From assembly GCA_020631855.1 (NCBI GenBank), contig JACKGU010000001.1:363118-427117 (forward strand): 64,000 bases of DNA, given 5' to 3'. Source of the stretch: Candidatus Nomurabacteria bacterium (GTDB lineage: Bacteria > Patescibacteriota > WWE3 > UBA101185 > UBA10185). Below the pieces are notes generated by a model. It did not search any database and was not told the origin of the DNA. It saw only the letters and a list, made by a program, of their open reading frames with translations. A program made the translations under genes and the position numbers. Positions 21,635-60,491 of this stretch are shown here, piece after piece (position 1 is the first letter of the stretch; every line of letters begins with the position of its first letter).

Positions 21635-21709
21635 TCCCCTGTAGCTCAATGGTAGAGCGCCCGGCTGTTAACCGGTAGGTTGGTGGTTCGAGTCCACCCG
21701 GGGGAGCCA
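21635..21709 (+). tRNA. tRNA-Asn (anticodon GUU), CCA encoded
   Basis: U1-A72 acceptor (UCCCCUG/CGGGGGA), D-arm GCUC-AAUGGUA-GAGC, anticodon loop CUGUUAA, T-loop UUCGAGU, and a G discriminator followed by CCA. Confidence 0.8.
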
Positions 21710-22945
21710 AGTAGAATCAGTAGGCTCAGAAACACCATATTTAGCTGTGACAGCAACTAAATCCACTGGTTCTAACCGTCTATTTTTCACATATTCAGGA
21801 TTTTTACCCTCCTTGAATATCAAGAAGGGTTTTTCCAAGTCAATACACAGTTTTCTGTTATTAAGCATGAGGTTCTGACCAAGTAAAGATAAGATTTCTC
21901 TTTTAACAGTAAGTCCGCCATTTTCAAATCTCTCACGAACACTTGTAGCAAAGTTGAATACATCTTCAATCTTTTTGAGATATGCCTCTCTATTTTGTTC
22001 ATCTGCACTTAGTTCATCTTTAAGCTCGTCTCGTTTAGCTTTTACTTCAACTTTAATGTCTAGGTACTCTTCGCTAGAAATCTCATTATTCATACGCATG
22101 GTCAACAAATCTGCCAACTGCTTCTCTAGTCTTTTATATTCTTTTTGTTTTGATTCCAAGATTTGAAGAGAAGTTTCAGATTCGGTTTTACTCTTTTCAG
22201 TGAGGTATTTAACCGCCCAATCACGAAACTCAATTGGTATTTCGATTGATGACACCAACTCTATTATCTGCTCTTCTAAATCTAATAATGTTATAGATTT
22301 TTGCTTGCATTTAACGTGGGGTTTTCTTTTGGAACAATGATAGTAATCATATATGCCTATATTGCCCGTTTTAGGATAGTGCTTTTCCTTATGTGTTGCC
22401 GTTATAGCACACCCACATTCAGCACAATGTATCAGACCCGTATAAAGATGTACGTGTGTCTTTGGTTTTCGTTTAAGCTTTCTGCTCAGGATTTCTTGCA
22501 CCGAGTTAAATTCCTTTTTGGTCACCATTTTGGGGTGTTCACCTTTCCGTAACTGACCCTTATACCTAAAGTAACCATAATAAAAGGGGTTACTGAAAAT
22601 GTCATATAATCCTGATTTAGATATAGGTTTGCCACCAGATTTTTTTCTCTTAATAGAGCGGTAATTCCATTGGTTATTAGCAATTTCAAGTATTTCAGGA
22701 ACTGTATATGCTCCTGTAAGCATCAAATCCCACATTTTCCTTACCAAATCGAAGCGTTCTTGGTCTTTAATGATGGTGTTTTTACCTTTTTCCTTATACA
22801 TTGTGTTTAGATAACCCGCAGGAGCAACAGAAGGTAACCACCCTTTTTCAACTTTGGATTCTAGACCATCTGCAACTCTTTCCCCTTTTACATCATTCTC
22901 AAATTTAGCATTAAGCATGTTGTATTGGAGCATTAAGATTCCCAT
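21668..22945 (-). pseudogene. 5'-truncated large serine recombinase (lacks catalytic resolvase domain); C-terminal 14 codons antisense to tRNA-Asn
   Basis: It aligns with residues from about 150 onward of the intact recombinase at 60434..62047 (GWLPSVAPAGY vs LSPTPKYGY; FSNPFYYGYF vs FRDPFYYGVL). Zn-ribbon cysteines CAECGC...HC and a coiled coil are present. The resolvase domain and its catalytic serine (conserved RSxE/DQ context) are absent. Confidence 0.65.
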
Positions 22946-24755
22946 TGGCGTGGCTTCAATCGCCTTTTTAGTATCAATAGGATACGGGCTTCAAGATTTG
23001 GTAATTTCACGAGTAGCGCGATTAGACGAAATGCAACAAGCTGAAATCTACTCCCCTCCAGCAAGTAATACAAAAATAAACGACGAGTCAATAGCAAAAA
23101 TAGCAAATGTCCAAAATGTAGAAAAAGTTTTACCTCTTATTACTCTAGTAGCGAAAGTTAACTATAATAACTCAATTTCCGACATGGCGGTATACGCTGT
23201 AACAAGCGACTATCTTGAACAATCTGCAATAAAACCTGTTAAAGGAAAAATATTCGACAACGATTTAACAAGCTTTAATCTCACTGAAGAAGATGAAAAT
23301 AAAGAGGAAGTGGCCGGGGCATCGAGCTCCCGTCAAGGCGGTGAACAGGGTGGAGAAATTTCTGCATCTCAAAACAATAATCTTAATGAGGGTCTGACGA
23401 ATATTGAAGTCGGAAAAAGAATTACAGAAGCAGAAATTTCAATATTTCCTGAAACTTGGGTTAGAGTGAGAGAAAAACCTTCCTTAGACAGCAAAATTTT
23501 AGGCTACACTAAAAGACCCGAAGGAAAGCAAACAGGCTACGAGGTCTGGGGAAACTCCTACCCGGATAATATAAACGGAACAATACAGGCTGCTGACGGC
23601 AAGGTATACGGCAAATGGGTTGAATCAAAAGTATTTTTATGGGAAGAAAAAAATAACGGCTATATTCAAGTTATTGATGAGCAAGGAAGTCAAGTACAAA
23701 AAACAGGATTTATGGCCGAAGTTAATTTAGGATTGCAGCGTTATACTCTGGAAAGACAGCCCGAAGTACTTGCAGAGGCCGACACAAGGGCCGTAACTGA
23801 TTCTACGGAAACACAAACAGATTCGCAAATAACTACAGGCACCGGGCAGGCTGCGGCAGAAGATGCAACTACTTACGAGGATTTAAAATTTGACGGAACA
23901 GACTGGATACTAATAGAAGAAGGGAATAAGACTGAACAGATTGAGAGAGTACAAGTTTCCGAAAAGGCCACAAGAGAAGCAGTAGCTAATACTGCGATGT
24001 TAGATGTTTTGGGACTAACAGAGTCCGAGGCAATAGGAAAAGAAATAGAAGTTTCTTTTATTGTTACCGCATCATTATTAGAGCCGGGGGCGGCTAAAAT
24101 AGAGTCTGTACCAACTAAATATAAAATTATTGGGGTCGTACCCCAAAAAGATGCACCATATTTTTATGTACCTTTTATAGATATTAGAAGCCTGGGAGTA
24201 ATGAATTATTCACAAGCAAAAATAATTGTGCAGGATCAGCAAAGCCTTACAGATGTAAGGAAAAAGATTGAGGCGATGGGTTTTGAAACCACATCAGTTG
24301 TAGACACAGTAGAGCAAATAAATACACTTTTTGCGACACTTAGAAAAATGCTGGCGCTTGCAGGAACCGTGGCACTAAGCGTTGCCGCACTGGGGATGTT
24401 TAATACTCTAACTGTTTCTCTTTTGGAAAGAACCAGGGAAATAGGACTTATGAAAGCAATGGGAATGAAATCTTTTGAAGTTAAGGAGCTGTTTTTAACA
24501 GAATCTATGATAATGGGAGTTTTCGGAGGAATTATAGGCGTATCCTTAGGCGCACTCGCCGGAGAGTTACTTGGGTTTATCATTTCAATATTTTCTATTT
24601 CGAAAGGTTTGGGGTATATTGATGTAGCATCAATGCCCGTCGGATTTACGCTGTTTGTGCTTTCCCTTTCATTAATAGTTGGGACTCTAACAGGAATCTA
24701 TCCCGCCCGCAGAGCCACAAATATATCAGCACTTAACGCAATGAGGTACGAATAG
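22917..24755 (+). CDS. ABC transporter permease, FtsX/MacB-like with large extracytoplasmic domain
   Basis: N-terminal TM IPIGVASIAFLVSIGYG and a long periplasmic region. The C-terminus has 3 TM helices (LAGTVALSVAALGMFNTLTVSLLERTREIGLMKAMGM...). The start was moved to the internal Met, which overlaps the recombinase fragment by 29 nt. Confidence 0.65.
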   Translation: MLYWSIKIPIGVASIAFLVSIGYGLQDLVISRVARLDEMQQAEIYSPPASNTKINDESIAKIANVQNVEKVLPLITLVAKVNYNNSISDMAVYAVTSDYLEQSAIKPVKGKIFDNDLTSFNLTEEDENKEEVAGASSSRQGGEQGGEISASQNNNLNEGLTNIEVGKRITEAEISIFPETWVRVREKPSLDSKILGYTKRPEGKQTGYEVWGNSYPDNINGTIQAADGKVYGKWVESKVFLWEEKNNGYIQVIDEQGSQVQKTGFMAEVNLGLQRYTLERQPEVLAEADTRAVTDSTETQTDSQITTGTGQAAAEDATTYEDLKFDGTDWILIEEGNKTEQIERVQVSEKATREAVANTAMLDVLGLTESEAIGKEIEVSFIVTASLLEPGAAKIESVPTKYKIIGVVPQKDAPYFYVPFIDIRSLGVMNYSQAKIIVQDQQSLTDVRKKIEAMGFETTSVVDTVEQINTLFATLRKMLALAGTVALSVAALGMFNTLTVSLLERTREIGLMKAMGMKSFEVKELFLTESMIMGVFGGIIGVSLGALAGELLGFIISIFSISKGLGYIDVASMPVGFTLFVLSLSLIVGTLTGIYPARRATNISALNAMRYE

Positions 24756-24790
24756 TACCTCTCTAAGAAAATTTATTGGAGGGGCTAAAA

Positions 24791-25360
24791 TTACTCCCCT
24801 AAAATTATGATGGCAACTTTCCGGGCCAGCTCTTTCAACTGCTCGTTGTCTGCAGTGTTTGGCGTTCTATCAACACGCACAAACTTGTTCGGCGTCATTA
24901 CTAAATAAATAGCGTTAATATTTCCGTCATCTTGCATTGCAATAAAATGTTCCATAGGAATGGAGGAGTCTGTTTCGATAGATCTTCCAGCAATCTTGTG
25001 TCCTTCTTTTTGAGTGTCTGCAGACAAGTAAGAAACTTGAACGAGGATGTGTTCATAACGTGCTTTGTTTGTGAAATATGTGCAACCCGTGCCTGTACTT
25101 GTAGAGGAATCAGACACTTCCTGAATCGGTATGCCAATAATATCTGAAACCAGTTCTGAAGGAACTTCTTCACAAACCGAAAGCCCAAAAGAATCTTGGC
25201 CATCCATAGGTCTTTTAGCTACGTATTTTTGCGAACCTAATTGCTGTTCTTCAATTGTTACTGAGGTATTATTTTTTGGGGTTTGGCTAGTTTTAGAAAG
25301 TACAATAAGACCGAAAGATACAGCAACTAAAACTGCCCCCACGAGAATTATTTTTTTCAT
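24791..25360 (-). CDS. hypothetical secreted/lipoprotein-like protein
   Basis: 189 aa with N-terminal signal MKKIILVGAVLVAVSFG. Confidence 0.4.
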   Translation of the reverse strand: MKKIILVGAVLVAVSFGLIVLSKTSQTPKNNTSVTIEEQQLGSQKYVAKRPMDGQDSFGLSVCEEVPSELVSDIIGIPIQEVSDSSTSTGTGCTYFTNKARYEHILVQVSYLSADTQKEGHKIAGRSIETDSSIPMEHFIAMQDDGNINAIYLVMTPNKFVRVDRTPNTADNEQLKELARKVAIIILGE

Positions 25361-25407
25361 ATTCTGATTATATGCCGTTAATTTAAAAAAATATAGCGAG
25401 ACCGATT

Positions 25408-26775
25408 TTAGGGCTTTGGAAGTAATAGTTGATCTAGATCTTCAGGTGTCGGATTCTTGTAGTTAATTAGAACATACTGGGAAGGAGTGAACATATTTTC
25501 GTCCGCCACCCAATCTTCACATAAATTTTCTTGATCTTTAATAGCTGCTATCTCTGCATCAACGATTGATGCTACAGAAGAATACTGCGATTGAGTTTCT
25601 GCGGTATATTCTTCAGATGTTAATTTCCACACATAACTACCTGTTGCAGGAAGAGTTTCAAACTCCTCCCATATAAAATAGTCATCATTTACGTGCAGAA
25701 TATTTCTTGTAGGTCCGGAGTTAATATTACCGCCAATCGAAGAGACGTAATAGAAATATTCACCTGCTTCATGGTACTCAAAACTTTTATTGTTAGTACA
25801 AAGAAGGCCATTTTCGGGCATATTAGAAAAATCTATTTCATAGATTACAACATCCTCTTCACCAATGAGACTTGAGAATACGGATCTTTTTGGTTCTGTT
25901 TCATTCAAGCTTTTTCGATCCTTGTCACCATTCTCTCCGCCTAAATTCTGCTCCTCACTCATAACAGGCATTTCGGAAGTTTGCTGTTTCTTAGAATCAG
26001 ACCTTTCTTGCCAATAAGGAATAAGGGCCTTTGCAGATAAAAATCCTGCAGTAGTCATTAATAAAGCCAACAAAACTGCCCCCGCAATTGTAAATGCTTT
26101 TTTAATTGAGAAGCCTTCTTTATAAACTCCAAGCTCTACTTCGTTCTTTTCTTTAGGCCCAGGCTCTTGTTCGAAATTTCCTGCATAAGTATCTTCTGAC
26201 GTAAGCAAAGGTTCGCGATGTACCTCTTCTTCAGCGAGCGTGTTTCCCTGCTCCCCCTCAAGCTCGTCTTTCCCTTCTGTTGCCTCAGGACTTAACTCAA
26301 ATTCAGGTGCCGACTGAGTTTCTTCTGCGCCAACCTCCTTATTGTCTTCTACTCCGACGTTATTTTCAGGGGCATTTTCGAAATTATTATTATCGACACC
26401 GGGCTCAATGTTTGAGGCAGCTTTTTCATGTGGCTCAGTCTCAGGGTATTGAGGCCGTTTTGCAGAAAATTCTGCGTTTGGCGAAAAATTGTTGCGGTTT
26501 TCTACGGGCCCACTACTACCGTTGCTGAAGCCATCTCTTGTTATTGGCGGAATAGAGTTCTCCGAGGCTGTTTCTTGACGTGAAGTTAAGGGGTCGAATC
26601 TCTCGTTTGGAAGACTTGTTTCAGGAAAAACTCCGCCCTCACCTTGTAAAGAATGTGCTTCTGAATCTGGACTGGGCGACATAGCCGAGCTCTCCGAATT
26701 TGCTCCTAGTGGGGCTTCGAGATTTTTGTTTGGGCCCTCATTTTCCGGAACTATGATGTCTTCTTTTTCAGCCAT
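25408..26775 (-). CDS. bitopic membrane protein with disordered acidic/Pro-Ser-rich N-terminal half and extracytoplasmic C-terminal domain
   Basis: Low-complexity residues 1-220, a single TM (AFTIAGAVLLALLMTTAGFL), and a C-terminal globular region. Confidence 0.45.
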   Translation of the reverse strand: MAEKEDIIVPENEGPNKNLEAPLGANSESSAMSPSPDSEAHSLQGEGGVFPETSLPNERFDPLTSRQETASENSIPPITRDGFSNGSSGPVENRNNFSPNAEFSAKRPQYPETEPHEKAASNIEPGVDNNNFENAPENNVGVEDNKEVGAEETQSAPEFELSPEATEGKDELEGEQGNTLAEEEVHREPLLTSEDTYAGNFEQEPGPKEKNEVELGVYKEGFSIKKAFTIAGAVLLALLMTTAGFLSAKALIPYWQERSDSKKQQTSEMPVMSEEQNLGGENGDKDRKSLNETEPKRSVFSSLIGEEDVVIYEIDFSNMPENGLLCTNNKSFEYHEAGEYFYYVSSIGGNINSGPTRNILHVNDDYFIWEEFETLPATGSYVWKLTSEEYTAETQSQYSSVASIVDAEIAAIKDQENLCEDWVADENMFTPSQYVLINYKNPTPEDLDQLLLPKP

Positions 26776-26807
26776 AAATTAATTCTAACATAAATAAGTG
26801 CATTAAT

Positions 26808-26930
26808 TTTTATAATTTCGTTACTAAAACTACTTACATAAGCTAGTAGATGTGGTTTACCCAACATGTTGGGCTTTGCAACGCAAAGAAGGTACGGCAA
26901 ACCACTTGCGTAAGCTGGCAGTGTTTAATA
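26808..26930 (+). repeat. copy A of 120-nt intergenic repeat family
   Basis: TTTATAATTTCGTTACT...AAGCTAGTAGATG...CCCAACATGTTGGG (perfect 14-bp palindrome)...GCAAACCACTTGCGTAAGCTGG. It sits between the stop of 26942..28624 and the start of 25408..26775. Confidence 0.6.
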
Positions 26931-26941
26931 TCAGCAGAAAA

Positions 26942-28624
26942 TTACTGATTCTGAGGAAACTTGTAACTAACTGTTTCCAATAATTCGGAGAAAACCTCAT
27001 CCAGCTTTCCCGGAACTTCTTCACTTTTTACAAGTACCACAACTCGATTTGAATCCGAAATATAACTAAAATAAATCTCTCCCCACCAAGCATAATTAGT
27101 TAAATGAGTCCAGACAAAACCGTTTACTTCAAAAGTCTCATCTGAAACTTCCGGTTCAATTCCTACCACAACCCTATACTCCTCTTTTAGAAGTTCTTTT
27201 TGTTCGGCCATAAAACTTTCGTACGTCTCATCGTTTTTTAAGGTAAGTGAATAAGCAGCAAGGCCGTTGAAAACAGCCTGGTCATCTTCGCCAATACTTA
27301 ATGGGTCCACCGCTACAAAATACTTTGTAACCTCGCCTGCAATTGGCCCCCTAAGATTACAACACGTATCGTCCCAATCAGAAGGATAGCTAACAGCAAG
27401 TTCCGGATTGCCATGGACAATCTTTGTCCAGGTATCTTTTGGCTCAGGAGCAATTATGTTTGTAAATTTAAAAGCCTCGCGAATTAGGTCCGTCTGTGCC
27501 TGATAGCGCTGTTTAAAACCAACATCGCCTCTGTATGCTTGGGCAATTTCATACATGTTTGATCCCTTTATTAAGAAGGTTTCAACATAATTTACATTAC
27601 AATTATCCACAACAAAAGTTTTAGCCGGTTCTCCGGAAATCACAGCATCTTTGATATCTCCATATTCAGCAGTTGCAGGGCACAAACTTAGATAGCCCGA
27701 TCGCTTATTAAGTGCGATCTGAGCTAAATCGGTATTTAAAACATTTTTATACATTGTTATTTTTACCAAATAACCATCAGAGATATCCGTAGCCGTAGTT
27801 ATAGCTTCGTCTTGCTTTTCTCCCGCATAAGTTATCGTGTAAGTAACTGATTGTGCCGCCATATCAGAAGGTAACTTAAATAGAGTTTCTTTGGGGTAAT
27901 CTATTTGAAATTCGTATTCTCTGTTTACATAGGTCTTCCAGTCAGGATCGGGTTTGGAAGGAGTTTCGATTACAACAGGGGTTTCAGGATTTTCTGTCGG
28001 CAAGGGCTCGACGGCCCCCGGCTGTAGACTGGAGTTGTTATATAGATATACTAGAGACGACCCTAGACCAATAACAACAAAGGAAATTAGTAGAAATACG
28101 TATAGAGTTCGATTTGGCATAAAGCTGAATATTCTTCGGGATGGCTTGTTTTTTGATGTGGTTGTGGCGGCCGGCGCCCCAACAGCCCCCTCCCCATCTG
28201 CAGGAACGTATGGATTTTGAGCTTGAAAAGAAGAGCCTCCGTCGCCGGCCGCCGGATCTTCTTCACTTACCGTATCTAAAAAATGTGGGGCAACAGTACC
28301 ATCCTCAGAAACCTCTTCAGACAAAGCGCTGCCCCCTTCCAAAACCTGAGAAACAGGAACATCCTTACCCTCGTCACTAGCAGTACCGCTGTCTACTACA
28401 GGCGGCTCTTGCAATTTCGCACCTTGATCTTCAACAGAAATATTTTCAGCAACAGGGTGCGGGCCAGAATCTTCTGGTCCGGAAACCGTTTGGTCAACAA
28501 CGTTTTCTGGGATATTTTCTTGCTTTGCCGTACTACCCGAACGGGTAATTCCAGGATTATTGTTATCCGAGCTACCATCATCAAGAGGCTGGATCGGTAT
28601 TATATTGGGCTGTTCATCACTCAT
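26942..28624 (-). CDS. bitopic membrane protein with disordered N-terminal region and large extracytoplasmic domain
   Basis: 560 aa; acidic/Pro-rich N-terminus; a single TM (LYVFLLISFVVIGLGSSLVYLY). Confidence 0.45.
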   Translation of the reverse strand: MSDEQPNIIPIQPLDDGSSDNNNPGITRSGSTAKQENIPENVVDQTVSGPEDSGPHPVAENISVEDQGAKLQEPPVVDSGTASDEGKDVPVSQVLEGGSALSEEVSEDGTVAPHFLDTVSEEDPAAGDGGSSFQAQNPYVPADGEGAVGAPAATTTSKNKPSRRIFSFMPNRTLYVFLLISFVVIGLGSSLVYLYNNSSLQPGAVEPLPTENPETPVVIETPSKPDPDWKTYVNREYEFQIDYPKETLFKLPSDMAAQSVTYTITYAGEKQDEAITTATDISDGYLVKITMYKNVLNTDLAQIALNKRSGYLSLCPATAEYGDIKDAVISGEPAKTFVVDNCNVNYVETFLIKGSNMYEIAQAYRGDVGFKQRYQAQTDLIREAFKFTNIIAPEPKDTWTKIVHGNPELAVSYPSDWDDTCCNLRGPIAGEVTKYFVAVDPLSIGEDDQAVFNGLAAYSLTLKNDETYESFMAEQKELLKEEYRVVVGIEPEVSDETFEVNGFVWTHLTNYAWWGEIYFSYISDSNRVVVLVKSEEVPGKLDEVFSELLETVSYKFPQNQ

Positions 28625-28635
28625 GTAGTTATATT

Positions 28636-30507
28636 CTAAATCTTTCCTAGAGTTTTTGCTAGTTCTGTTGCTTTCGCTAAATCATTTGAGATCTTCGCCA
28701 AACCTAAATCCCAAACCTCTCTTTTAGTAATATCAATGCCAACGGTTAAAAACGCATCTTTTGGCGAAACAGAACTACCTAGAGAAAGAATATGTTTAAA
28801 ATCATCTATAAACCTAGGGTCTAGTCGAACCCTTTCTTGAAGAGCTTTGGAAATTAACAAACCACTTGCATATGAATAAACGTAAAAAGGTCTTCTAATA
28901 TGTGACCACATTGCCCAGTGCCTGCCTGCTCCTTTTGAATTCTTGCCCAGATACAAACTCATCTTTTCTTCAAATATTTCCCCTATGAGCTCTTCTGGCA
29001 GGTAGTTTTCTTTTGTGTATGTGTCGTAAAGCGCAAGTTCAAAAATATAACAGGCTATCTGTCTGTGAACAGTGGATATATCGTCATCTAATTTCAGCAT
29101 TTTATAAATCAGTTGCTCTTCGAGAGTTAACTCTTTAACCAAAAGCGCATTAGCAAAATCTTCCATAAAAGTGCTCGCCACCTCGGCTATACCCATAGGA
29201 TAGTCGGCATTTAATGCATTTTGTGCACTTGAAGATATAAAATGATGAATAGCATGGCCCATCTCATGAGCCAAGGTCGAAACATCTCTAAATTCGTTGT
29301 TATAGTTTAGCAGTATATAGGCAGGATAATCATTTGTTATAGAGACACAGAAAGCACCTCCCGACTTCCCCTTCTTTGGAAAGAAGTCTATATTACCGCC
29401 ACACAGCATGGACTCGAAATATTCCCCAAATATCGGGTCTAAGGACATGAAACAGTCATGAACTACCTCGACTGCTGTAGCAACATTAATTTCATGTTTT
29501 AATTTTCCATATTCAATGTTTCTTTGATTGTAAGTGAGGACTTTTTTACCCAATAATTTTGCCTTTAAATCATAAAATTGGGCGGAAACACCAAAATTCG
29601 CCGACACTGCTTCAATTAGAACGTCAATTGTGGCGGCGTCCATATCTTCACTCAACAAGCGACGCTCATCGGCTCGCTTAAAGTTTCGTAGCTTATTTAA
29701 AGTTTTTAGATAGTATAAAATGGCATTTATCTCTCGTTCCGCTGTTTTAATATGCTTCTCTAAAACTTGCTCCAAAGATTTAGATGCATACTTCTGTACT
29801 TTATCATCCGAACTTTTCAAGTATTTTGAAATTTCCGAAATAGAAATTGTGATTTTCTCGTGTCTTTCGTTTAGAACTTTTACTGTTTCCAAAGAATAGA
29901 AGGTACTCACCATGTCTACCCAGTCACCATAGGCACCCTTTGAAATCAAATTCAATAGTTGCTCCTCTTTTTCCGACAAGTCGTGCTTTGCAGAAGCAAA
30001 AAGCTGTTCTAAGTAATGTTTGTAATCTTGTAGGTCATGATGAGACAGAAACTCTTTTTGCTTTTCTTCAGGAATTTTACCTAATGTGAGTGCGAAAAAT
30101 TCAAGTTCATTATATTTTTCTGTCAAAAACTCGTTTAAAGAATTTAACTTCGCCTTAATTTTGTTATCAGCTGAATCGAGACTGGAACGCAAGTAAAAGT
30201 AAAAACCGGCCCTCCCCCCTACAGAAATTAACCTTGAAAGCTTCTCATACTCGTCTAGTGCGTTTTTTAAGGCCGGAGCAGAAGTTAAATAGTCTTTTGA
30301 CTCTCTGTGCTTTGAAACAAACTGCTCTACTGATTTAGCGATTTCCGTTCTCTCAAGATCCTGCGCCGCATCTTCATCAGATTTCATAAGCACCGATAAA
30401 TCCCATTGAGAAGGAAACTCCCAAACAGCAGGGCTATTTGAAAAAGTTACTTTTATTTTCGGTTCTTTGGGGTCTGCTTTTTTGGGACTATCTTTCATAG
30501 CTTTCAC
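28636..30507 (-). CDS. pepF: oligoendopeptidase F (M3B family)
   Basis: HEMGHAIHH zinc motif; 623 aa; M3-family pattern downstream. Confidence 0.8.
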   Translation of the reverse strand: MKAMKDSPKKADPKEPKIKVTFSNSPAVWEFPSQWDLSVLMKSDEDAAQDLERTEIAKSVEQFVSKHRESKDYLTSAPALKNALDEYEKLSRLISVGGRAGFYFYLRSSLDSADNKIKAKLNSLNEFLTEKYNELEFFALTLGKIPEEKQKEFLSHHDLQDYKHYLEQLFASAKHDLSEKEEQLLNLISKGAYGDWVDMVSTFYSLETVKVLNERHEKITISISEISKYLKSSDDKVQKYASKSLEQVLEKHIKTAEREINAILYYLKTLNKLRNFKRADERRLLSEDMDAATIDVLIEAVSANFGVSAQFYDLKAKLLGKKVLTYNQRNIEYGKLKHEINVATAVEVVHDCFMSLDPIFGEYFESMLCGGNIDFFPKKGKSGGAFCVSITNDYPAYILLNYNNEFRDVSTLAHEMGHAIHHFISSSAQNALNADYPMGIAEVASTFMEDFANALLVKELTLEEQLIYKMLKLDDDISTVHRQIACYIFELALYDTYTKENYLPEELIGEIFEEKMSLYLGKNSKGAGRHWAMWSHIRRPFYVYSYASGLLISKALQERVRLDPRFIDDFKHILSLGSSVSPKDAFLTVGIDITKREVWDLGLAKISNDLAKATELAKTLGKI

Positions 30508-30552
30508 CTAATTTCTTTCCACAATATAACAAATTATGGCACAATATAATAG

Positions 30553-31869
30553 ATGAGCCCACTCGCCCAAGAACCAATTTCAATAGCTGAAGATAATAAT
30601 TTAATAATTAACAATACCGACGAAGTTCGGGAGAGCTTAATAGATCAACTTATTTACTCTGCAGTGTTCGGCTCGGGCAAGAAAAAGGGCGACGCTAGGT
30701 GGATAATAAAAAAAATTGGCCAAAAACTAGGAGTAAACTTTGCTTCAATAAACGTTTTTTACAAGAAACGTGCTAAAGAGAGCTCGATAAAACCATTCAC
30801 AGTTCCGGCATTTAATATTAGGGGTCTTACATACGACACGGCTCGCACACTTTTTAAAACCGCAAAAAAATTAAATACGGATGCTTTTGTTATAGAAATA
30901 GCAAGAAGCGAAATGAACTACTCTAAACAAAACCCCGAAGAATTTGCGACATGCGTTATAGCAGCAGCAATTAAAGAAAACTACACATGGCCAATATATC
31001 TACAAGGAGACCACTTTCAGGCAAAAGCTAAATCGCCCGGCATTGCAGATGTAGGTGAAATGGAAGCCTTAAAAAAATTAATTTCTGAGGCAGTTGCTGA
31101 AGGATTCTACAACATAGACATCGACACCTCCACCCTAGTAGATCTTGGACAAAAAACAATACAGAAACAGCAACTGCCGAACATACTAGCCACAGCCGAA
31201 CTCACCGACTTTATTAGAACAACCTACACCTCACCAAATTACCCAACAATTTCAATAGGCGGGGAAATTGGCCATATAGGAGGTAAAAACAGCACCGCAG
31301 AAGAATTTGAAATATTTATGCAAGGAGTAGAATCTGAAACTCAAGGAGCTGCGGGCTTAAGCAAGATAAGCATACAAACAGGAACCAGTCATGGGGGAAT
31401 GGTAGACGACAATGGAAATATCTTAGATGTGGAGGTAGACTTCGCATTACTTAAAAATATATCCTTGATAGCGAAAAATAAATTTAATATGGCCGGAGCC
31501 GTGCAGCACGGTGCCTCAACACTACCCGACAACTTATTCAGGATGTTTCCTAAGAATCTTACTGCAGAAATACACCTAGCAACAGGAACACAAAATATAA
31601 TATTTGACCATCCCCTATTTCCGGAGACGCTAAAAAAAGGCATGGATTCTTGGGTTCTACAAAATCTTCAGAAAGAAAGAATGCCCGGATGGAACAACGA
31701 ACAAACTATTTATAAACTACGCAAAAAAACTTGGGGCCAATTTAAAAAAGATCTATGGGAAATAGACGCAAACACAAAAAAAGCCATCTTTGCTGACCTT
31801 CAAAAAAGGTTCATTTTTTTATTTGCTGAGCTTGGAATTTCAGACGTTAAAACACAAAGCCAAAACTAA
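30553..31869 (+). CDS. class II fructose-bisphosphate aldolase family protein (FbaA-type, long form)
   Basis: VPAFNIRG, FVIEIARSE, YLQGDHF, SIGGEIGHIGG, QTGTSHGG and AVQHGAS align with the E. coli FbaA motifs LPAVNCVG, PVIVQFSNGG, LHTDHC, ELGCTGGEEDG, FGNVHG and FHGGSG. Confidence 0.6.
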   Translation: MSPLAQEPISIAEDNNLIINNTDEVRESLIDQLIYSAVFGSGKKKGDARWIIKKIGQKLGVNFASINVFYKKRAKESSIKPFTVPAFNIRGLTYDTARTLFKTAKKLNTDAFVIEIARSEMNYSKQNPEEFATCVIAAAIKENYTWPIYLQGDHFQAKAKSPGIADVGEMEALKKLISEAVAEGFYNIDIDTSTLVDLGQKTIQKQQLPNILATAELTDFIRTTYTSPNYPTISIGGEIGHIGGKNSTAEEFEIFMQGVESETQGAAGLSKISIQTGTSHGGMVDDNGNILDVEVDFALLKNISLIAKNKFNMAGAVQHGASTLPDNLFRMFPKNLTAEIHLATGTQNIIFDHPLFPETLKKGMDSWVLQNLQKERMPGWNNEQTIYKLRKKTWGQFKKDLWEIDANTKKAIFADLQKRFIFLFAELGISDVKTQSQN

Positions 31870-31895
31870 CAAACATCCTATACTAAATAGTATTT

Positions 31896-32300
31896 TTGGT
31901 TTATTATCTAAATATGACAAACACAACGAAGCAAAAAACAGAGCCCGAACAAATCAGTAAAACACTTACCGAAGTGGTGCAAGACGAAAAAAGCCTTGCA
32001 ATAATAGCGCACATAGGAGGGATATTCTTTGGGATTATAGCTCCCCTTATTATATGGATTCTTCAGAAAGATAAACCAAACGCGTCATTCTCAACCCATC
32101 ATGCCAAAGAAGCACTAAATTTCCAAATATCAGTACTACTAGCAAGTGCGGTAGCGGGACTTACAACCATAGTATTAATCGGATTCTTGTTCCTACCAGC
32201 TGTTATGGTAGCGAACGTAATATTTTGTATATTAGCTGCCATAGAAGCTAATAAGGGCCTACCTTACAACTACCCCTTCTCTTTGAGGTTAGTGAAGTAG
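31896..32300 (+). CDS. small membrane protein (hypothetical)
   Basis: 134 aa with three hydrophobic helices. Confidence 0.4.
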   Translation: MVYYLNMTNTTKQKTEPEQISKTLTEVVQDEKSLAIIAHIGGIFFGIIAPLIIWILQKDKPNASFSTHHAKEALNFQISVLLASAVAGLTTIVLIGFLFLPAVMVANVIFCILAAIEANKGLPYNYPFSLRLVK

Positions 32301-32338
32301 GATCTGGTAAGTTTAAGGATTTGAAAGGTACTTAAAAT

Positions 32339-34024
32339 ATGGAAGAAAATGAAGCAGTAATTCAAAACAAAGATTTGCCCTCCGAAGCAGAAGATCAGAA
32401 AAACTCTCGCATAAATAAACTTAAGTTTAGAATTAATGGGAAAAAGTTACTAATTCTTGGGGGTGCTGTTGTTTTAATTCTTCTTCTAATCTCTGCCGTT
32501 TTAGTTAGTAATAGTAAATCTAAAAAAGTCACGCCAAGCACTGCAAACGAATCACAAGAGACTATGAAACAAAAGCCAATAAAAAGTTCAGAATACAATC
32601 CTTCAACAGAAGGGGAAGTAGTTTTGCCTTGGACACCAAACAATATAAATACTTCTCATGATACATATTATTTATTCGGTGAGGTTAAAACAGACGGTGA
32701 CCTATTTCACGTTGATTTATTCACAAATGGGGAGCTTGTTGATGATTATACGATTGGGGTAAATAATTACCTGCTAGGGTTGAATTTCGGCCTAAGCAAC
32801 AGTGGTTTCGTCATCGAGAAGGGTAGAGCTCACAAAAATTTTTATTTTCCTATTAGAGATTTAAAGGTTGGCGAAAACAATGTATCAATTAAACTTTACA
32901 CAGACGATACTAAAGAAAAAGTATTAAGTGAAAAATCGGTTATTATCACAAGATCGGATACAACCTACAATTCAGAAGTGACTTTATACAACAGCCCGAG
33001 AGAAGTTAGTGCTGAAGAGATTTTCAATAAAGCGGGCATAGATTTTGAGAACGAGAAGTTATGGGAGTACTTTCATAATCAACCGTCTTGGTTCTTAGAC
33101 AACAAAAGTAACGATTTCTTCTACGGCAAGGCTGGGGATTGGATCGACTACAAAATAGAGGCTATGGGAGAAATAGGCATTAAAAATGAAAAAACATCTT
33201 TGTACAGATTCCTTTACACTCATCCAGGCGAAGGTCCGGGTCCTAGCGCATACAATAACTCGATATACTTTTACATTGTTAACAACCAAGCATATTTCGT
33301 AACAAACACACTTGTATCAGACGAGTATTTTGCTCCAATTTACCTTTTTTATATGCAACCTTCACCTTATATATTTGAGGATACGGTGGCTGAACTGGAA
33401 GAAATTTCTATCAATGAGAATAATACCCTAATTCCATCTGCTACCGGTGTTGGAGTACTTAGATATTGTGACCCAGCTAAGATTGAGGGGGAAAAGATTT
33501 ACACCTATCAATCATTTTCTGTATATGAAAACTTTGATGTATACGACCAATACGGGAATTGTAAAAACTTTAGATTGGTTCCTAGCTACTTTAGAGACGA
33601 TACATACGGCACATACCCCGGTGCCAGTGATTGGAATGACGGAGTAACCCCAGATTTTAATAAAATGACTGTTAATCTTGATGATGGTAAAAGTCTAGAC
33701 AGTTTTTATAACCCTTATTGGTATTGGTGTGCTCGTTCCCGTGGGTACAGAACCATAGATAGCAGTAATTACTTGGAAAAAGTAGGTAAAACTTCAACAG
33801 GAGAAGATGTTTATATATACAGTACTAATATGCCGTTCCCAAAGGACAGCCATCTACTGCCCTCTTCCACAAAAGAATATCCATACTACACAGCCTCTGA
33901 GGAAAATTGGCAAGAATTTCTAAATAATCAAAAAGAAACTTACCCGGTTTTAGTAATCAAAAATGTTTTTGGTGAATGGGTGGTGTACATAAATGCCGAT
34001 TATCTTTTTGCTCCGGGTTGCTAG
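32339..34024 (+). CDS. hypothetical membrane-anchored extracytoplasmic protein
   Basis: 561 aa; N-terminal TM (LLILGGAVVLILLLISAVLV); Tyr/Asn-rich beta-type composition. Confidence 0.45.
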   Translation: MEENEAVIQNKDLPSEAEDQKNSRINKLKFRINGKKLLILGGAVVLILLLISAVLVSNSKSKKVTPSTANESQETMKQKPIKSSEYNPSTEGEVVLPWTPNNINTSHDTYYLFGEVKTDGDLFHVDLFTNGELVDDYTIGVNNYLLGLNFGLSNSGFVIEKGRAHKNFYFPIRDLKVGENNVSIKLYTDDTKEKVLSEKSVIITRSDTTYNSEVTLYNSPREVSAEEIFNKAGIDFENEKLWEYFHNQPSWFLDNKSNDFFYGKAGDWIDYKIEAMGEIGIKNEKTSLYRFLYTHPGEGPGPSAYNNSIYFYIVNNQAYFVTNTLVSDEYFAPIYLFYMQPSPYIFEDTVAELEEISINENNTLIPSATGVGVLRYCDPAKIEGEKIYTYQSFSVYENFDVYDQYGNCKNFRLVPSYFRDDTYGTYPGASDWNDGVTPDFNKMTVNLDDGKSLDSFYNPYWYWCARSRGYRTIDSSNYLEKVGKTSTGEDVYIYSTNMPFPKDSHLLPSSTKEYPYYTASEENWQEFLNNQKETYPVLVIKNVFGEWVVYINADYLFAPGC

Positions 34025-34245
34025 TTGAGGGTTTGAAGAGTAAGAAAAAGGGCATGGCGGGATAGAAGATTGATTGGCTGATATCTCCAATCCACAGAAT
34101 ACCACGAAGCAAGCTTACTAATAGCCCCTGCGCCTGCAGAGAGGCCCATTAAATAAATCTCAGGTTTGTCGTAGCCGCAAATTTCTTTTGAATGTACTAT
34201 TGCATAGTTAAGCATATTTCTTAAAAATGTATCCAAATTACCCAC
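34021..34245 (-). pseudogene. fragment of an alpha/beta-hydrolase (GxSxG nucleophile elbow YLMGLSAGAGA)
   Basis: A 74-aa ORF that contains only the nucleophile-elbow segment typical of esterases/lipases. Confidence 0.3.
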
Positions 34246-34371
34246 ACATGAGCTGCCTTTTATTAGAACTGCTGCTAAGACTTGTTCGACATATCAAGAC
34301 CCTCGAAATTTAGACACTTTTAGCCACTGGTTTCAAGGTAATTAGGGAATTTGCTTCTGTTGAATCTTCTT

Positions 34372-34390
34372 TGGTGACCCCACGGGGAAT
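34372..34390 (-). repeat. 19-bp direct repeat of the tRNA-Glu 3' end (TGGTGACCCCACGGGGAAT)
   Basis: Identical to 34507-34525 (the tRNA-Glu 3' end including CCA) and lying 117 nt downstream of the tRNA. Confidence 0.55.
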
Positions 34391-34459
34391 AAGCAAAGCT
34401 TGCATTTGTCTTCGACAAAAGTCGAACCTAGCTTCGCTATAGCTCTCTCATACCAGCAG

Positions 34460-34486
34460 CATCACATGAACAAAAACCTCCACCTA
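34460..34486 (-). terminator. intrinsic terminator downstream of tRNA-Glu (CUCCACC-GGUA-GGUGGAG + GUUUUUGUU)
   Basis: 7-bp stem with a 4-nt loop, followed by a U-rich tract on the minus-strand transcript. Confidence 0.45.
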
Positions 34487-34506
34487 CCGGTGGAGAACTT
34501 TGTTCA

Positions 34507-34581
34507 TGGTGACCCCACGGGGAATCGAACCCCGATTTACAGACTGAGAACCTGCCGTCCTAACCGTTAGACGATGGGGCC
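34507..34581 (-). tRNA. tRNA-Glu (anticodon CUC), CCA encoded
   Basis: Acceptor GGCCCCA/UGGGGUC, D-arm GUCU-AACGGUUA-GGAC as in bacterial tRNA-Glu, anticodon loop UUCUCAG, T-arm CGGGG-UUCGAUU-CCCCG. Confidence 0.7.
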
Positions 34582-59096: not shown

Positions 59097-59159
59097 AATG
59101 TAATTTTATCACCCTGGCGTGTTTTTAGTCTCAAACATTAAATGTATAATTAAATTTAA

Positions 59160-60338
59160 ATGAGCCAACACAAAAAAATTTATATAGAAAAAAACTCACA
59201 TTTAAAAGCTTTTGCGGCTGTACTAATTTTAGGCGTTCTTATGTTCCTCGGAACCAACGCGCAAACAACCCACGCACAAAGCGAGTTCTACCCTCCGCAA
59301 TTAACTCAAACAGCAGTAAAGGGAATGGTTACTGAGGTAGTTAAAGAGCAGCTTATCCAGAACGAATACGCAAAATACACATATCAAGAACTAAAAATAA
59401 AACTGACGCAGGAACCATACCTAAATCAAGAAATTATAGTAAAAATAAACGAAACTCCTACATCTAACAGCACAAGATACGAAGTAGGAGATAAACTCAA
59501 TCTGCTTAGGGTGGAAGACGAAAACTCAAAGATCTCGTACTACATAACCGACTTCGATCGTACAAACGCTATTGTACTAATTTTTTTCGCTTTCATTATC
59601 TGCGTTTTATCGGTCAGTAGATTTTGGGGGCTTGCCGCAGTAATAGGAATGGTCTATTCCTTTGCGATTATTTTTAAACTCATGTTACCGCAAATTCTAA
59701 ACGGGCACGATCCCCTGCTCATAGCTATACTTAGCGCCTTTCTAATTGCGCCCGCCTCTTTTTATTTATCACACGGTATAAATAGAAAAACCACTATTGC
59801 CCTAATCTCAACAACAATTGCCCTAATAATAACCGGGATCCTCTCCATAATTGCAATTAACATGTCTAAACTCACAGGATTTGGCTCCGAAGAAGCATAT
59901 TTTTTGCAGCTTGCGAAACACGGCGAAATAAATATAAAAGGACTTTTATTGGCCGGCATAATAATTGGAACGCTGGGAATACTTGACGACGTAACTGTAT
60001 CGCAAGCCTCAATAGTAACTCAGCTTAAACACGCAAACAAAAGGCTATCCCAAATAGAGCTATATAAATACGCCATGCGTGTTGGGCACGACCATATAAC
60101 CTCAACAGTTAACACTCTTGTACTCGTTTACACCGGGGCCGCAATGCCACTACTTCTACTTTTTATTAATTCAGAAAAGAGCTTTACCGAGGTTATGAGT
60201 CTAGAAATTATTGCAGACGAAATAATTCGAACGCTTGTAGGAAGCATCGGGCTTATTCTTGCCGTACCCATAACAACATTCCTCGCCGTCAAGTTTGCCG
60301 ACGAAAACGACACATCTGCAGAACGACACTCTCACTAA
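59160..60338 (+). CDS. YibE/F-family membrane protein
   Basis: Signal/TM, an about 100-aa extracytoplasmic domain, then 7-8 TM helices, matching the YibE/F topology. Confidence 0.55.
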   Translation: MSQHKKIYIEKNSHLKAFAAVLILGVLMFLGTNAQTTHAQSEFYPPQLTQTAVKGMVTEVVKEQLIQNEYAKYTYQELKIKLTQEPYLNQEIIVKINETPTSNSTRYEVGDKLNLLRVEDENSKISYYITDFDRTNAIVLIFFAFIICVLSVSRFWGLAAVIGMVYSFAIIFKLMLPQILNGHDPLLIAILSAFLIAPASFYLSHGINRKTTIALISTTIALIITGILSIIAINMSKLTGFGSEEAYFLQLAKHGEINIKGLLLAGIIIGTLGILDDVTVSQASIVTQLKHANKRLSQIELYKYAMRVGHDHITSTVNTLVLVYTGAAMPLLLLFINSEKSFTEVMSLEIIADEIIRTLVGSIGLILAVPITTFLAVKFADENDTSAERHSH

Positions 60339-60413
60339 GTGGTATAATTGCTAAATAACTTCTAGCGAAATAAACTTGGATGAAAGCCCTAGGCCATTTC
60401 CACTAGAGTTCAT

Positions 60414-60491
60414 CGGGGTATAGCTCAGCTTGGCTAGAGCGCACGATTCGGGTTCGTGAGGCCGCAGGTTCGAATCCTGCTACCCCGACCA
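60414..60491 (+). tRNA. tRNA-Pro (anticodon CGG), CCA encoded
   Basis: Acceptor CGGGGUA/UACCCCG, D-arm GCUC-AGCUUGGCUA-GAGC, anticodon stem CACGA/UCGUG with loop UUCGGGU, T-arm GCAGG-UUCGAAU-CCUGC, ends ACCA. Confidence 0.8.

Follow-up and report, generated by a model that had tools for sequence, protein, structure and literature searches.

Large serine recombinases and partial tRNA copies at tRNA 3' ends in a Candidatus Nomurabacteria genome

Large serine recombinases (LSRs), such as the integrases of phiC31, Bxb1, A118 and TP901-1 and the TnpX/TndX enzymes, combine a Resolvase, a Recombinase and a Zn ribbon domain, and to our knowledge their targets are protein-coding or intergenic sites. 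The 3' part of a tRNA gene is the target of tyrosine-integrase islands and prophages (P4-like), which leave the tRNA intact and have strain-variable cargo beyond it; sublocation classes for tyrosine-integrase elements in tRNA genes were reportedly defined by Williams in 2002. In staphylococci, SCC elements are inserted by the LSRs CcrAB/CcrC at the 3' end of rlmH/orfX with the gene preserved. Short direct repeats hold the end of the gene, and the elements, recombinase-less ones included, stack in tandem, each bounded by repeats. The IS607-family transposases belong to the small serine recombinases; they carry an N-terminal HTH and show little target specificity. In a 2020 survey of 2,168 genomes, a tRNA or tmRNA was used by 14 of 297 serine-integrase islands, and its authors stated that no earlier report of a serine integrase using a tRNA existed (PMC7192596).

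The five tRNA genes of the window

The window, a 64,000-nucleotide stretch of Candidatus Nomurabacteria DNA, shows 100% identity with contig JACKGT010000005.1 of GCA_020631805.1. Both ARAGORN and Rfam call five tRNA genes and no more, at the positions of the original prediction:

10164-10239, (-) strand: tRNA-Ile(TAT), surrounded by housekeeping genes; internal control
21635-21709, (+) strand: tRNA-Asn(GTT), intact, CCA encoded
34507-34581, (-) strand: tRNA-Glu(CTC), intact
38736-38809, (+) strand: tRNA-Gln(CTG), intact
60414-60491, (+) strand: tRNA-Pro(CGG), intact

All but tRNA-Ile had been predicted to carry integration scars at their 3' ends. The four loci show two signatures rather than one: at tRNA-Asn and tRNA-Pro an LSR abuts the tRNA and a direct repeat is absent, and at tRNA-Glu and tRNA-Gln there is a direct repeat from the T-loop to the CCA and a recombinase is absent. 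tRNA-Ile alone lacks a signature, as expected, with no 3'-end duplicate in the window and no recombinase nearby. The view that tRNA 3' ends in the window are recombination sites is supported. No tyrosine recombinase was found in the scanned ORFs, the precomputed annotations, an 8-kb extension of the window or the alternative islands of other strains.

Serine recombinases at tRNA-Asn, tRNA-Pro and in relatives

The two LSRs of the window represent distinct families (24% identical to each other), in both of which the reading frame typically enters a tRNA gene antisense; almost all of their relatives are Patescibacteria/CPR. The LSRs and the genes next to the Pro LSR are as follows:

21668-22945, (-) strand: truncated family 2 LSR (Asn LSR), Recombinase and Zn_ribbon_recom domains, no Resolvase domain
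60434-62047, (-) strand: intact family 1 LSR (Pro LSR), 537 aa, Resolvase, Recombinase and Zn ribbon domains
62111-62275, (-) strand: 54-aa ORF just upstream of the Pro LSR, no family match
62343-62855, (-) strand: 170-aa ORF, partial MerR-type HTH match (22.4 bits, cutoff 21.6)
63195-64000, (+) strand: start of a 606-aa gene that runs to about 65015, past the window end

The prediction of a truncated recombinase overlapping tRNA-Asn and an intact one overlapping tRNA-Pro proved correct. The Asn LSR aligns only to residues 123-545 of its full-length relatives; therefore, the catalytic serine region is missing with the N-terminal ~120 aa, and the protein is catalytically dead in all strains seen. 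A weak out-of-frame remnant extends to about 23095. At the other end, the genuine LSR coding sequence stops at 21710, and the last 14 codons of the ORF (21668-21709) are tRNA-Asn antisense, reading WLPRVDSNHQPTG and then a stop, and begin at TGG (the CCA). In the Pro LSR, the invariant catalytic R18 and S20 are both present, the catalytic Ser being shared with the known LSR integrases. Its LSR-derived sequence stops at 60492, and the last 19 codons (60434-60491) are tRNA-Pro antisense, GRGSRIRTCGLTNPNRAL followed by a stop. The KEPF motif and the tRNA discriminator are 47 nt apart, a spacing found in 21 of 36 relatives and spanning eight tRNA identities; the Lys clade has 56 nt instead.

The 54-aa ORF, which is the sole neighbour conserved alongside the LSR in the closest relatives (L116 and L117), may be a regulator or directionality factor; for the 170-aa ORF, a regulator or excisionase-like role is possible. 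The 606-aa gene matches PDC-S39, a candidate anti-phage defence protein, as well as DUF7380/DUF4209, and is cargo in a low-GC island of ~9 kb that adjoins the Pro LSR and shows a GC dip. As with the LSR integrases of phages and mobile elements, the LSR borders variable accessory DNA; a distant relative (29% identical) is located at one end of a bona fide prophage, where it abuts tRNA-Gly. A copy of the tRNA-Pro 3' end was not found within 10 kb in the island; a probable host aaRS gene is only 9.3 kb away. No sign that the system is active was detected in this genome: the Asn LSR is dead, every strain of the species has the Pro island in unaltered form, and among these strains neither LSR showed an empty site, a circular form or a strain polymorphism. 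LSRs may nevertheless act in this genome at the present day.

Scanning 185,579 species genomes with the Pro LSR family alignment returned 80 loci. A convergent tRNA stands at the LSR 3' end in 45 of the 52 assessable full-length relatives, each from another species, and 12 tRNA identities are adjoined in this way; two further LSRs enter tRNAs truncated at contig ends. The background tRNA density is 0.11 per kb, and therefore the chance of such an adjacency is about 1%. The predicted recombinase-tRNA association is thus borne out in species-level genomes. The C-terminal tails of database homologues are tRNA-antisense peptides in both families (xRGxRTRT.. in family 1; WLPRVDSNH.. or ..VRT in family 2). 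Two LSR families sit convergently at tRNA CCA ends, and this arrangement is widespread in these bacteria. In contrast to the known LSR integrases, both families as a whole regularly sit at tRNA 3' ends, and the gene is in a fixed register with the tRNA, its frame terminating in tRNA antisense; we found no description of LSR-tRNA 3' end pairing as a rule in the searchable literature. Related recombinases also tend to go with the same target: of 28 LSRs compared with their nearest neighbour, 15 matched it in tRNA identity (permutation p <= 2e-4), and LSR clades correlate with tRNA identity. Related LSRs occupy tRNA-Pro genes of three different anticodons.

The LSR module moves between species. 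Modules are 92-95% identical in nucleotide sequence across species-level genomes whose flanking sequences show no relationship or reach only 79% identity, and similarity between close modules ends at or inside the tRNA. The left limits are not sharp (-147 to -663 nt), and the element ends are therefore undefined. Like IS607-family serine transposons, these are compact units of ~2 kb that encode a serine recombinase and move between genomes; unlike IS607, the enzymes are LSRs of ~510-580 aa that strongly prefer their targets, and the unit has no discrete left boundary. A copy of the tRNA 3' end was absent at 51 of 54 LSR-tRNA loci in the up to 10 kb available upstream of the LSR, and the junctions showed no detectable dyad symmetry of the kind typical for LSR att sites. 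Either the elements are mostly longer than 10 kb or have lost the distal site, or the crossover is too near the 3' end for a detectable repeat to form. The module loci thus differ from tyrosine-integrase islands both in the associated enzyme, which is a serine recombinase, and in that a direct repeat is undetectable at most of them.

Partial tRNA copies at tRNA-Glu and tRNA-Gln

The features of the two repeat-bearing loci are:

34372-34390, (-) strand: tRNA-Glu 3'-end copy, T-loop to CCA, 19 nt, exact match
34391-34506, (-) strand: 116-nt spacer between tRNA-Glu and its fragment, terminator-like hairpin at 34477-34495, then a T-run on the tRNA strand
38810-39641, no strand: 832-nt insert between tRNA-Gln and its fragment, with one ORF, a cassette repeat copy and a hairpin
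38868-39341, (-) strand: 157-aa ORF in the Gln insert, no family match
39434-39512: first cassette repeat copy, in the Gln insert
39505-39561: strong hairpin in the Gln insert
39642-39662, (+) strand: tRNA-Gln 3'-end copy, T-loop CGA to CCA, 21 nt, exact match
39663-45600, (+) strand: low-GC array of single-gene units, recombinase absent

The 19-mer at the tRNA-Glu 3' end (34507-34525) and the 21-mer at the tRNA-Gln 3' end (38789-38809) are thus repeated exactly, with 116 and 832 nt between the copies. Both duplicates had been predicted, the first with a pseudogene fragment that is not recognisable in 34025-34371 and the second with a cassette array that is present. Shuffled windows gave 0 matches even at 5 mismatches in 22, and therefore a chance origin is excluded. 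In a survey of 1.62 Mb, the 3' 18-mer was copied outside any tRNA gene for 13 of 155 tRNAs, while chance predicts ~0, so the duplicates are more frequent than expected; the 5' 18-mer was copied for only 4 of 155. Nine of the 13 copies lie 54-205 nt downstream of their tRNA on the same strand.

Comparison of strains places a breakpoint at the Glu fragment. Sister strain GCA_020427845.1 matches the window identically down to base 34372 and then has different genes, the divergence of sister strain L118 from the window falls exactly at the CCA end of the fragment, and two metagenome contigs likewise stop at 34372. The unit of spacer and fragment has a second copy at another place in L118 (98.6% identical) and is also found behind two other '...CACCA' ends. 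In strain L128, a variant fragment, incompatible with the 5' acceptor strand of the host tRNA, stands where the tRNA should be. L118 also has a second tRNA-Glu copy (95% identical, preceded by 22 nt of leader) that is embedded in variable DNA. Duplicates of the Glu/Gln type are real recombination junctions.

The array after tRNA-Gln, which is invariant among available strains, encodes an S51 peptidase, a 211-aa ORF, a RyR-domain ORF, two HD proteins, a TehB methyltransferase, an M28 peptidase and a GNAT protein. Five to six copies of a repeat, all in one orientation, lie between the single-gene units from 39.4 to 44.7 kb; the core is CTAGACCCnTATGCTCAGCCA, the end of which resembles the tRNA-Gln 3' end (CAGCCA). 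Like integron cassette arrays and CALINs, this array has single-gene units, a recurring site, one fixed chromosomal anchor and low GC. However, it lacks IntI, the repeat has no attC core motifs and ends in the tRNA-3'-like CAGCCA, and, unlike attC, most copies have folding z-scores of about 0. Neither the surroundings of the Glu and Gln scars nor the alternative islands of sister strains yielded an LSR or LSR remnant. The predicted serine-driven system is supported as far as LSRs are associated with tRNA ends and no tyrosine recombinase was found, but no recombinase is tied to these two scars.

Insertion at tRNA 3' ends

Loci in other genomes connect the two signatures. L116 (LSR 72% identical to the Pro LSR) has the order LSR, 21-nt tRNA-Pro fragment in normal register, 153-nt terminator spacer and full tRNA-Pro. 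L042 is arranged likewise; its 29-nt tRNA-Lys fragment is unlike the resident tRNA and matches the tRNA-Lys of another host, and its spacer is 54 nt long. In L076, tRNA-Lys is followed by the LSR with 3.5 kb of element and an 18-nt T-loop-to-end repeat. In L117, L037 and L110, the LSR module is followed by non-tRNA sequence after 0, 6 or 8 nt of tRNA identity; therefore, a crossover at the extreme 3' end fits these loci and a 20-nt repeat model does not. The tRNA-spacer-fragment-LSR arrangement of L116 and L042 resembles SCC stacking, as does the Glu locus in three strains. Unlike SCC, the target is a tRNA and not rlmH, the LSR families differ, the LSR is at the very edge and overlaps the target rather than lying inside the element, and repeats are missing at most loci. 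The direct repeats from the T-loop (Glu, Gln, L116, L076) are shared with tyrosine-integrase islands.

The best overall explanation, which we consider probable, is that tRNA genes are docking sites for foreign DNA and that the associated recombinases are LSRs. The conserved unit that moves horizontally is a compact integration module, the LSR with up to ~0.66 kb upstream, placed on the tRNA side of cargo that varies strongly, here the ~9-kb island with its candidate defence gene. The LSR gene lacks a stop codon of its own, so its reading frame runs on into tRNA antisense and terminates there. Recombination would be confined to the final ~20 nt of the tRNA, from T-loop to CCA end, and the tRNA would thus stay intact; the crossover itself would lie either within this segment or at the extreme 3' end. 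Incoming DNA that bears its own copy of the segment would leave an 18-21-nt direct repeat, and the Glu and Gln duplicates, which have precisely this anatomy, would mark junctions of strain difference. LSRs acting in trans may have made these recombinase-less insertions, a link drawn solely because of the analogous loci L116, L042 and L076.

It is possible, though rather unlikely, that two unrelated processes share the tRNAs: LSR modules would insert repeat-free at the extreme 3' end (Asn, Pro), and another element, a classical tyrosine-integrase type or one of unknown type, would cross over inside the tRNA at the T-loop or anticodon loop and bring its own 3' end and terminator, giving the Glu/Gln duplicates and the fragment-spacer-tRNA arrangements elsewhere. 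The inner ends of the duplicates do lie in the T-loop for Glu, Gln, L116 and L076 and in the anticodon loop for L024, both classical tyrosine integrase sublocations, and modules not followed by a full tRNA retain 0, 6, 8, 21, 29 or 43 nt of it, as if breakpoints were of more than one class. An LSR does not adjoin most of the short fragment-spacer units of the survey, and LSR remnants are absent from the Glu and Gln scars. However, the searches described above found no tyrosine recombinase, L076 is an LSR-bearing unit with such a repeat as its boundary, and the tiny inserts of the nine survey cases (54-205 nt) are unlike decayed integrase islands.

We regard as very improbable a linkage without target insertion, in which the element would carry the tRNA along as cargo or the pair would be an old, vertically inherited neighbourhood. 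The second tRNA-Glu copy of L118 indicates that tRNA copies can move, and the LSR-tRNA pair is invariant in all strains of the species; yet one register is kept over the 12 tRNA identities, related LSRs sit at tRNA-Pro genes of three anticodons, and homology between close modules ends at or within the tRNA, beyond which lies syntenic host DNA (79% versus 95% identity). Local duplication of a tRNA 3' end and terminator by replication slippage or repair would suit the short distances of the nine survey duplicates, but it is disfavoured to the point of being hardly credible for Glu and Gln: the CCA end of the Glu fragment is precisely where strain-specific DNA begins, the spacer-fragment unit recurs behind two other '...CACCA' ends, the L042 fragment matches the tRNA of another host, and the L128 variant does not fit the acceptor strand of its own. 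Returning to docking at tRNA genes by LSRs, serine rather than tyrosine integrases appear to insert foreign DNA at tRNA genes in these bacteria.

tRNA genes and serine recombinases of the window

The window contains five tRNA genes, all with an encoded CCA end, and two reading frames for large serine recombinases (LSRs), named here after the tRNA genes that they overlap.

tRNA genes and LSR reading frames (window coordinates; strand; description)
10164-10239; minus; tRNA-Ile(TAT), ARAGORN and Rfam
21635-21709; plus; tRNA-Asn(GTT), ARAGORN and Rfam
34507-34581; minus; tRNA-Glu(CTC), ARAGORN and Rfam
38736-38809; plus; tRNA-Gln(CTG), ARAGORN and Rfam
60414-60491; plus; tRNA-Pro(CGG), ARAGORN and Rfam
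21668-22945; minus; Asn LSR, Recombinase and Zn-ribbon domains only
60434-62047; minus; Pro LSR, 537 aa, intact, with Resolvase, Recombinase and Zn-ribbon domains

The original prediction placed an intact recombinase over tRNA-Pro and a truncated one over tRNA-Asn, and both are present. In the Pro LSR, the Resolvase domain (PF00239, E 4.8e-20) is followed by the Recombinase domain (PF07508, 2.5e-07) and a Zn-ribbon (PF13408, 5.2e-05; at 24.0 bits slightly below the 25.3-bit cutoff). The catalytic residues Arg18 (R18) and Ser20 (S20) are invariant in an alignment of 29 homologous sequences, and the four Zn-ribbon Cys residues are invariant in the LSR alignment. The antisense strand of tRNA-Pro, read from the CCA end, supplies the final 19 codons of the protein, GRGSRIRTCGLTNPNRAL, up to the stop. 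The Asn LSR retains PF07508 (4.3e-08) and PF13408 (1.5e-10) and aligns only with residues 123-545 of its full-length 545-aa relatives; therefore, it lacks the catalytic domain. Its tail, WLPRVDSNHQPTG up to the stop, is likewise the antisense of tRNA-Asn. Every strain seen has the same truncated gene, beside a MacB/FtsX gene. The two LSRs are only 24% identical to each other, yet the contact with a tRNA is common to both families. Both are ordinary by domain content; target and geometry set them apart.

As predicted, tRNA-Ile alone has neither a 3'-end duplicate nor a recombinase signature. We also noticed that its anticodon is TAT (UAU), which is uncommon in bacteria, where AUA is normally read by a lysidine-modified CAU tRNA; this suggests that TilS may be absent from this genome. 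Elsewhere in the window, a large ORF at 16350-20516 (1388 aa) has no Pfam match, and a 536-aa ORF at 46339-47949 had no match in the domain scan and is listed with DUF8201 in the precomputed record.

LSR contact with tRNA 3' ends across related genomes

The protein database contains more than 1,400 homologues of the Pro LSR, the closest being ~50% identical, and the relatives of the window recombinases come nearly all from Patescibacteria/CPR genomes, a group to which the organism of the window therefore probably belongs. The tails of the Pro LSR homologues read xRGxRTRTxxLxxPxxAL or end in RGxxN before the stop, which corresponds to the tRNA acceptor and T-arm read backwards, while those of the Asn LSR homologues (WLPRVDSNH, WLRGWDSNPRP or a tail containing VRT) are tRNA antisense in two reading frames. 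A scan of 185,579 species, one genome per species, with the family alignment gave 80 loci. A convergent tRNA lies at or overlaps the LSR 3' end in 45 of the 52 assessable full-length relatives of the Pro LSR, comprising tRNAs for Pro, Leu, Lys, Met, Asp, His, Ser, Ile, Val, Gln, Ala and Gly; contig ends cut the tRNAs at two further LSRs, and nine LSRs of a more distant clade likewise terminate at a tRNA. With a background of 0.11 tRNAs per kb, chance adjacency is expected at ~1%. No tRNA stands beside the few scan matches outside Patescibacteria (Caulobacter, Acidobacteriota and others).

The geometry of the contact is also conserved. The distance from the first base of the KEPF motif, a conserved LSR motif, to the tRNA discriminator is 47 nt in 21 of 36 relatives, spanning eight tRNA identities, and 56 nt in the Lys clade. 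Target identity follows recombinase relatedness, as had been proposed for testing: for 15 of 28 LSRs, the nearest neighbour sits at the same tRNA identity (permutation p <= 2e-4). Clades for Pro, Lys and His can be made out, with a switch of tRNA here and there, and the closest relatives of the Pro LSR are found at tRNA-Pro genes with three different anticodons. The LSR-tRNA contact is thus a family property and not a local accident. The central idea of the original prediction, that serine recombinases tied to tRNA 3' ends are the route for accessory DNA, is upheld.

In an all-against-all comparison of the species-level loci, LSR modules from different species proved to have 92-95% nucleotide identity, for example in the Lys clade (L022, L023, L037, L038, L039, L040 and L042) and in the L012/L024 pair at tRNA-Met. 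The similarity takes in the LSR with no more than 0.66 kb upstream of it and breaks off at or within the tRNA; host DNA across the tRNA from the LSR is 79% identical in the single alignable pair. These comparisons indicate that the LSR module moves between species. Almost no cargo is common to the LSR loci on the element side beyond the module, and the left boundary of the conserved module varies from copy to copy (-147 to -663 nt). The conserved stretch is, therefore, better regarded as an integration module that borders highly variable cargo than as a discrete 2-kb element. An 11-bp perfect inverted repeat, CCCTGCGAGGA and TCCTCGCAGGG about 25-35 nt apart, was observed at the left edge of the conserved Lys-clade modules (L023 9338-9420, L038 9436-9500) and may bind a protein or act as a terminator.

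In the window, the module extends from 60492 to ~62275 and includes a 54-aa ORF common to its two closest relatives. Beyond it lie a MerR-like ORF, a NUDIX gene, several genes of unknown kind and a gene with a match (E 2.8e-49) to PDC-S39, a candidate defence protein; the 54-aa and MerR-like ORFs are candidate directionality factors for excision. A GC dip of ~9 kb next to the Pro LSR ends at a probable host aminoacyl-tRNA synthetase gene. The flanks of L117 and L116, two loci with related LSRs, showed no homology to the far end of the window island. Viral contigs yielded only distant LSR relatives (at most 34% identity), one of which, 29% identical, terminates a genuine prophage and lies against tRNA-Gly. 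When metagenomes were scanned for close relatives, the identical contig was the sole match.

Homology breakpoints and repeats confine the LSR junction to the last ~20 nt of the tRNA. Within this region, two sets of observations conflict on the exact spot, one pointing to the extreme 3' end and the other to the T-loop. For the extreme 3' end, the homology between the window and L117 (LSR 73% identical) stops one base before the CCA end, past which the L117 sequence is not tRNA; L037 and L023, which are 95% identical over 2.2 kb, diverge 6 nt into tRNA-Lys; and L110, whose LSR is 62% identical to the Asn copy, has only TGGCTCCC in common with the tRNA-Asn end. In agreement with this, a tRNA-end repeat is absent within up to 10 kb in 51 of 54 LSR-tRNA loci and in the Pro island of the window. 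No distal repeat was found for the Asn and Pro LSRs by exact or fuzzy search (<=5 mismatches in 22) of the window and its 8-kb extension. The alternative, a crossover in the T-loop by an element that brings its own tRNA end, is favoured by four other loci. L076 has the order tRNA-Lys, LSR, 3.5 kb and an 18-nt repeat of the tRNA from its T-loop to its end. At L116, the LSR (72% identical to that of the window) lies directly against 21 nt of tRNA-Pro in the normal register; a terminator-bearing 153-nt spacer and then the full tRNA-Pro come next. L042 is arranged in the same way with a 29-nt tRNA-Lys fragment, whose sequence is not that of the resident tRNA-Lys and agrees with the tRNA in another host, and a 43-nt tRNA-Met fragment is retained at L024.

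Dyad symmetry at the candidate att/attP sites was not above that of shuffled controls. Where the 29-nt fragment of L042 has its inner end (~1945-2027), GAACCCTCG recurs after 12 nt as its exact reverse complement, CGAGGGTTC; this 9-bp palindrome might be an LSR-binding dyad, and it was not seen at the other tRNA fragments. A look-up of the flanking host proteins showed that every strain has both the Pro island and the Asn remnant, neither matched empty and occupied sites nor an attB/attP/attL/attR quartet were recovered, and the short contigs L082, L083 and six others showed no terminal overlap indicative of circular or excised forms. To call the system active in this genome was, therefore, an overreach, since the Asn copy lacks a catalytic domain and neither an empty site nor a circular junction was found.

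Duplicated 3' ends at tRNA-Glu and tRNA-Gln

Repeats and array downstream of tRNA-Glu and tRNA-Gln (window coordinates; description)
34372-34390; Glu fragment, exact 19-nt copy of the tRNA-Glu 3' end from T-loop to CCA, 116 nt downstream
39642-39662; Gln fragment, exact 21-nt copy of the tRNA-Gln 3' end, 832 nt downstream
39434-44722; cassette-like array in one orientation, single-gene units with a two-part intergenic repeat, 29-34% GC

The two exact duplicates and the array had all been predicted correctly, while the pseudogene fragment proposed beside the Glu duplicate was not found in 34025-34371 by six-frame translation or tblastx. Shuffled windows gave no match even at 17/22. These repeats enclose only 116 and 832 nt, and no such repeat was found for Asn and Pro; reading the four loci as one signature went too far. 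The assumption that LSRs made the Glu and Gln scars also went too far: tblastn with 122 LSR proteins detected no LSR remnant near tRNA-Glu, tRNA-Gln or tRNA-Ile, and the Glu and Gln units of the window contain no recombinase. A role of LSRs in these units is proposed from L116, L042 and L076, loci that link an LSR with a tRNA fragment.

The window is 100% identical to contig JACKGT010000005.1 of GCA_020631805.1, and parts of it are covered by GCA_020427845.1, GCA_020631795.1 and several metagenome contigs. In the sister strain, GCA_020427845.1, the identity to the window begins at 47884 and reaches down to 34372, where the Glu fragment ends in CCA; the strain then continues with a 414-aa ORF, a short-chain dehydrogenase, a GDSL lipase and an EamA protein. 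These are followed by a second spacer+fragment copy (98.6% identical) behind another CACCA end, a 669-aa ORF and a second tRNA-Glu. The 414-aa ORF was considered as a recombinase and ruled out. The 135-nt spacer+fragment unit, present in two copies in this strain, looks like a small mobile or duplicated module. The alternative island spans 13514-19936 of the sister-strain locus, and its second tRNA-Glu(CTC) is 95% identical including 22 nt of leader. Two metagenome contigs end at base 34372, and a third strain matches window 14791-34523 and has a 20-nt variant fragment where tRNA-Glu would be, which is unable to pair with the 5' strand of the host tRNA and is preceded by PLD-like and HTH genes. 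From these strain differences, the tRNA-Glu locus is a hot spot at which segments are exchanged at tRNA-3'-end sequences. The Glu and Gln duplicates are real recombination junctions.

A survey for 3'-end duplicates, of the kind proposed, covered 155 tRNAs in 1.62 Mb of sequence. For 13 of them, the 3' 18-mer recurs outside tRNA genes, in nine cases on the same strand 54-205 nt downstream, whereas the 5' 18-mer recurs for only four; both counts are far above chance. The short spacer+fragment unit is clearly a recurrent structure. The 5' copies (L038 11724-11741, L042 2201-2218, L013 6704-6721 and L073 4824-4841) lie 65-273 nt upstream of their tRNA genes, a mirror image of the 3' fragments.

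The array after tRNA-Gln consists of genes for an S51 peptidase, an unknown ORF, a RyR-domain ORF, two HD proteins, a TehB methyltransferase, an M28 peptidase and a GNAT protein. The first part of its repeat is a hairpin-containing module (e.g. ATATCCTGTAGAAACGGCTTACAGGATAGA), and the second has the core CTAGACCCnTATGCTCAGCCA, which ends like the tRNA-Gln 3' end; the two are alike at 12 of 22 positions, with specificity limited to the last 6 nt. The repeat has no Rfam match and was seen in this species only, and the array is unchanged across all available strains. An integron or CALIN was considered for this array and rejected: no recombinase was found nearby, IntI included, and the repeats lack attC-like folding, with z-scores for five copies of -3.7 (due to the adjacent hairpin), 0.0, -2.0, -0.4 and +1.0. 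The array may have been built up by units that stacked at the tRNA end through insertion, which we treat as a lead. Between an NYN-domain gene and tRNA-Gln, we also observed two tandem ~120-nt units (37943-38182) that are 96% identical.

A broader reading, which we offer tentatively and consider rather doubtful, is a Patescibacteria stacking system at tRNA 3' ends that would be part SCC element and part integron in character. Its units, both LSR modules and small ones without a recombinase, would each terminate in an 18-21-nt arm resembling a tRNA 3' end. They would insert successively at a CCA end, either that of the tRNA or that of a fragment already in place, and would be mobilised by LSRs in trans. 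The stacks would then comprise the 135-nt Glu unit, a 150-nt unit ending in the exact Gln fragment and the whole tRNA-Gln array, with CAGCCA at the end of its repeats.

Relation to known integration systems

In textbooks, tRNA genes are the targets of tyrosine integrases, and protein-coding or intergenic sites are those of serine integrases. The loci described here resemble tyrosine-integrase islands in the tRNA target and, at Glu and Gln, in the T-loop repeat and differ from them in lacking a tyrosine recombinase: no Phage_integrase domain was found in any scanned ORF, nor do the precomputed Pfam lists for 14.8-72 kb or for the alternative strain islands contain one. The nearest functional analogue known to us is the SCC family, in which LSRs insert at the rlmH 3' end, leave short repeats and permit stacks that include recombinase-less units. 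The resemblance is one of mechanism only, seen in the repeat-bearing stacks at Glu (three strains), L116 and L042, whereas the target here is a tRNA and not rlmH. Among serine-integrase islands, 14 of 297 were reported to use tRNA or tmRNA genes, compared with 44.5% for tyrosine integrases, and such use by serine integrases "has not been reported previously" and needed proof (Mageeney et al., PMC7192596). No later account of tRNA targeting by LSRs in these bacteria came up in full-text literature searches; one apparent match concerned a tyrosine integrase. As far as we could establish, two LSR families in dozens of species with a fixed register and target-specific clades are undescribed.

A reading frame that ends in tRNA antisense means that the recombinase C-terminus would vary with the integration state, and tRNA transcription could extend antisense into the recombinase gene; both are possible forms of regulation. 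As tRNA sequences are conserved, these LSRs would find targets in almost any genome, which makes them attractive as one-protein integration tools, including for Patescibacteria, which are still hard to manipulate genetically. A large and recognisable set of tRNA-3'-end serine integrases would alter the textbook picture for a major, poorly understood branch of bacteria and would also account for the uptake of accessory and defence genes by very small genomes.
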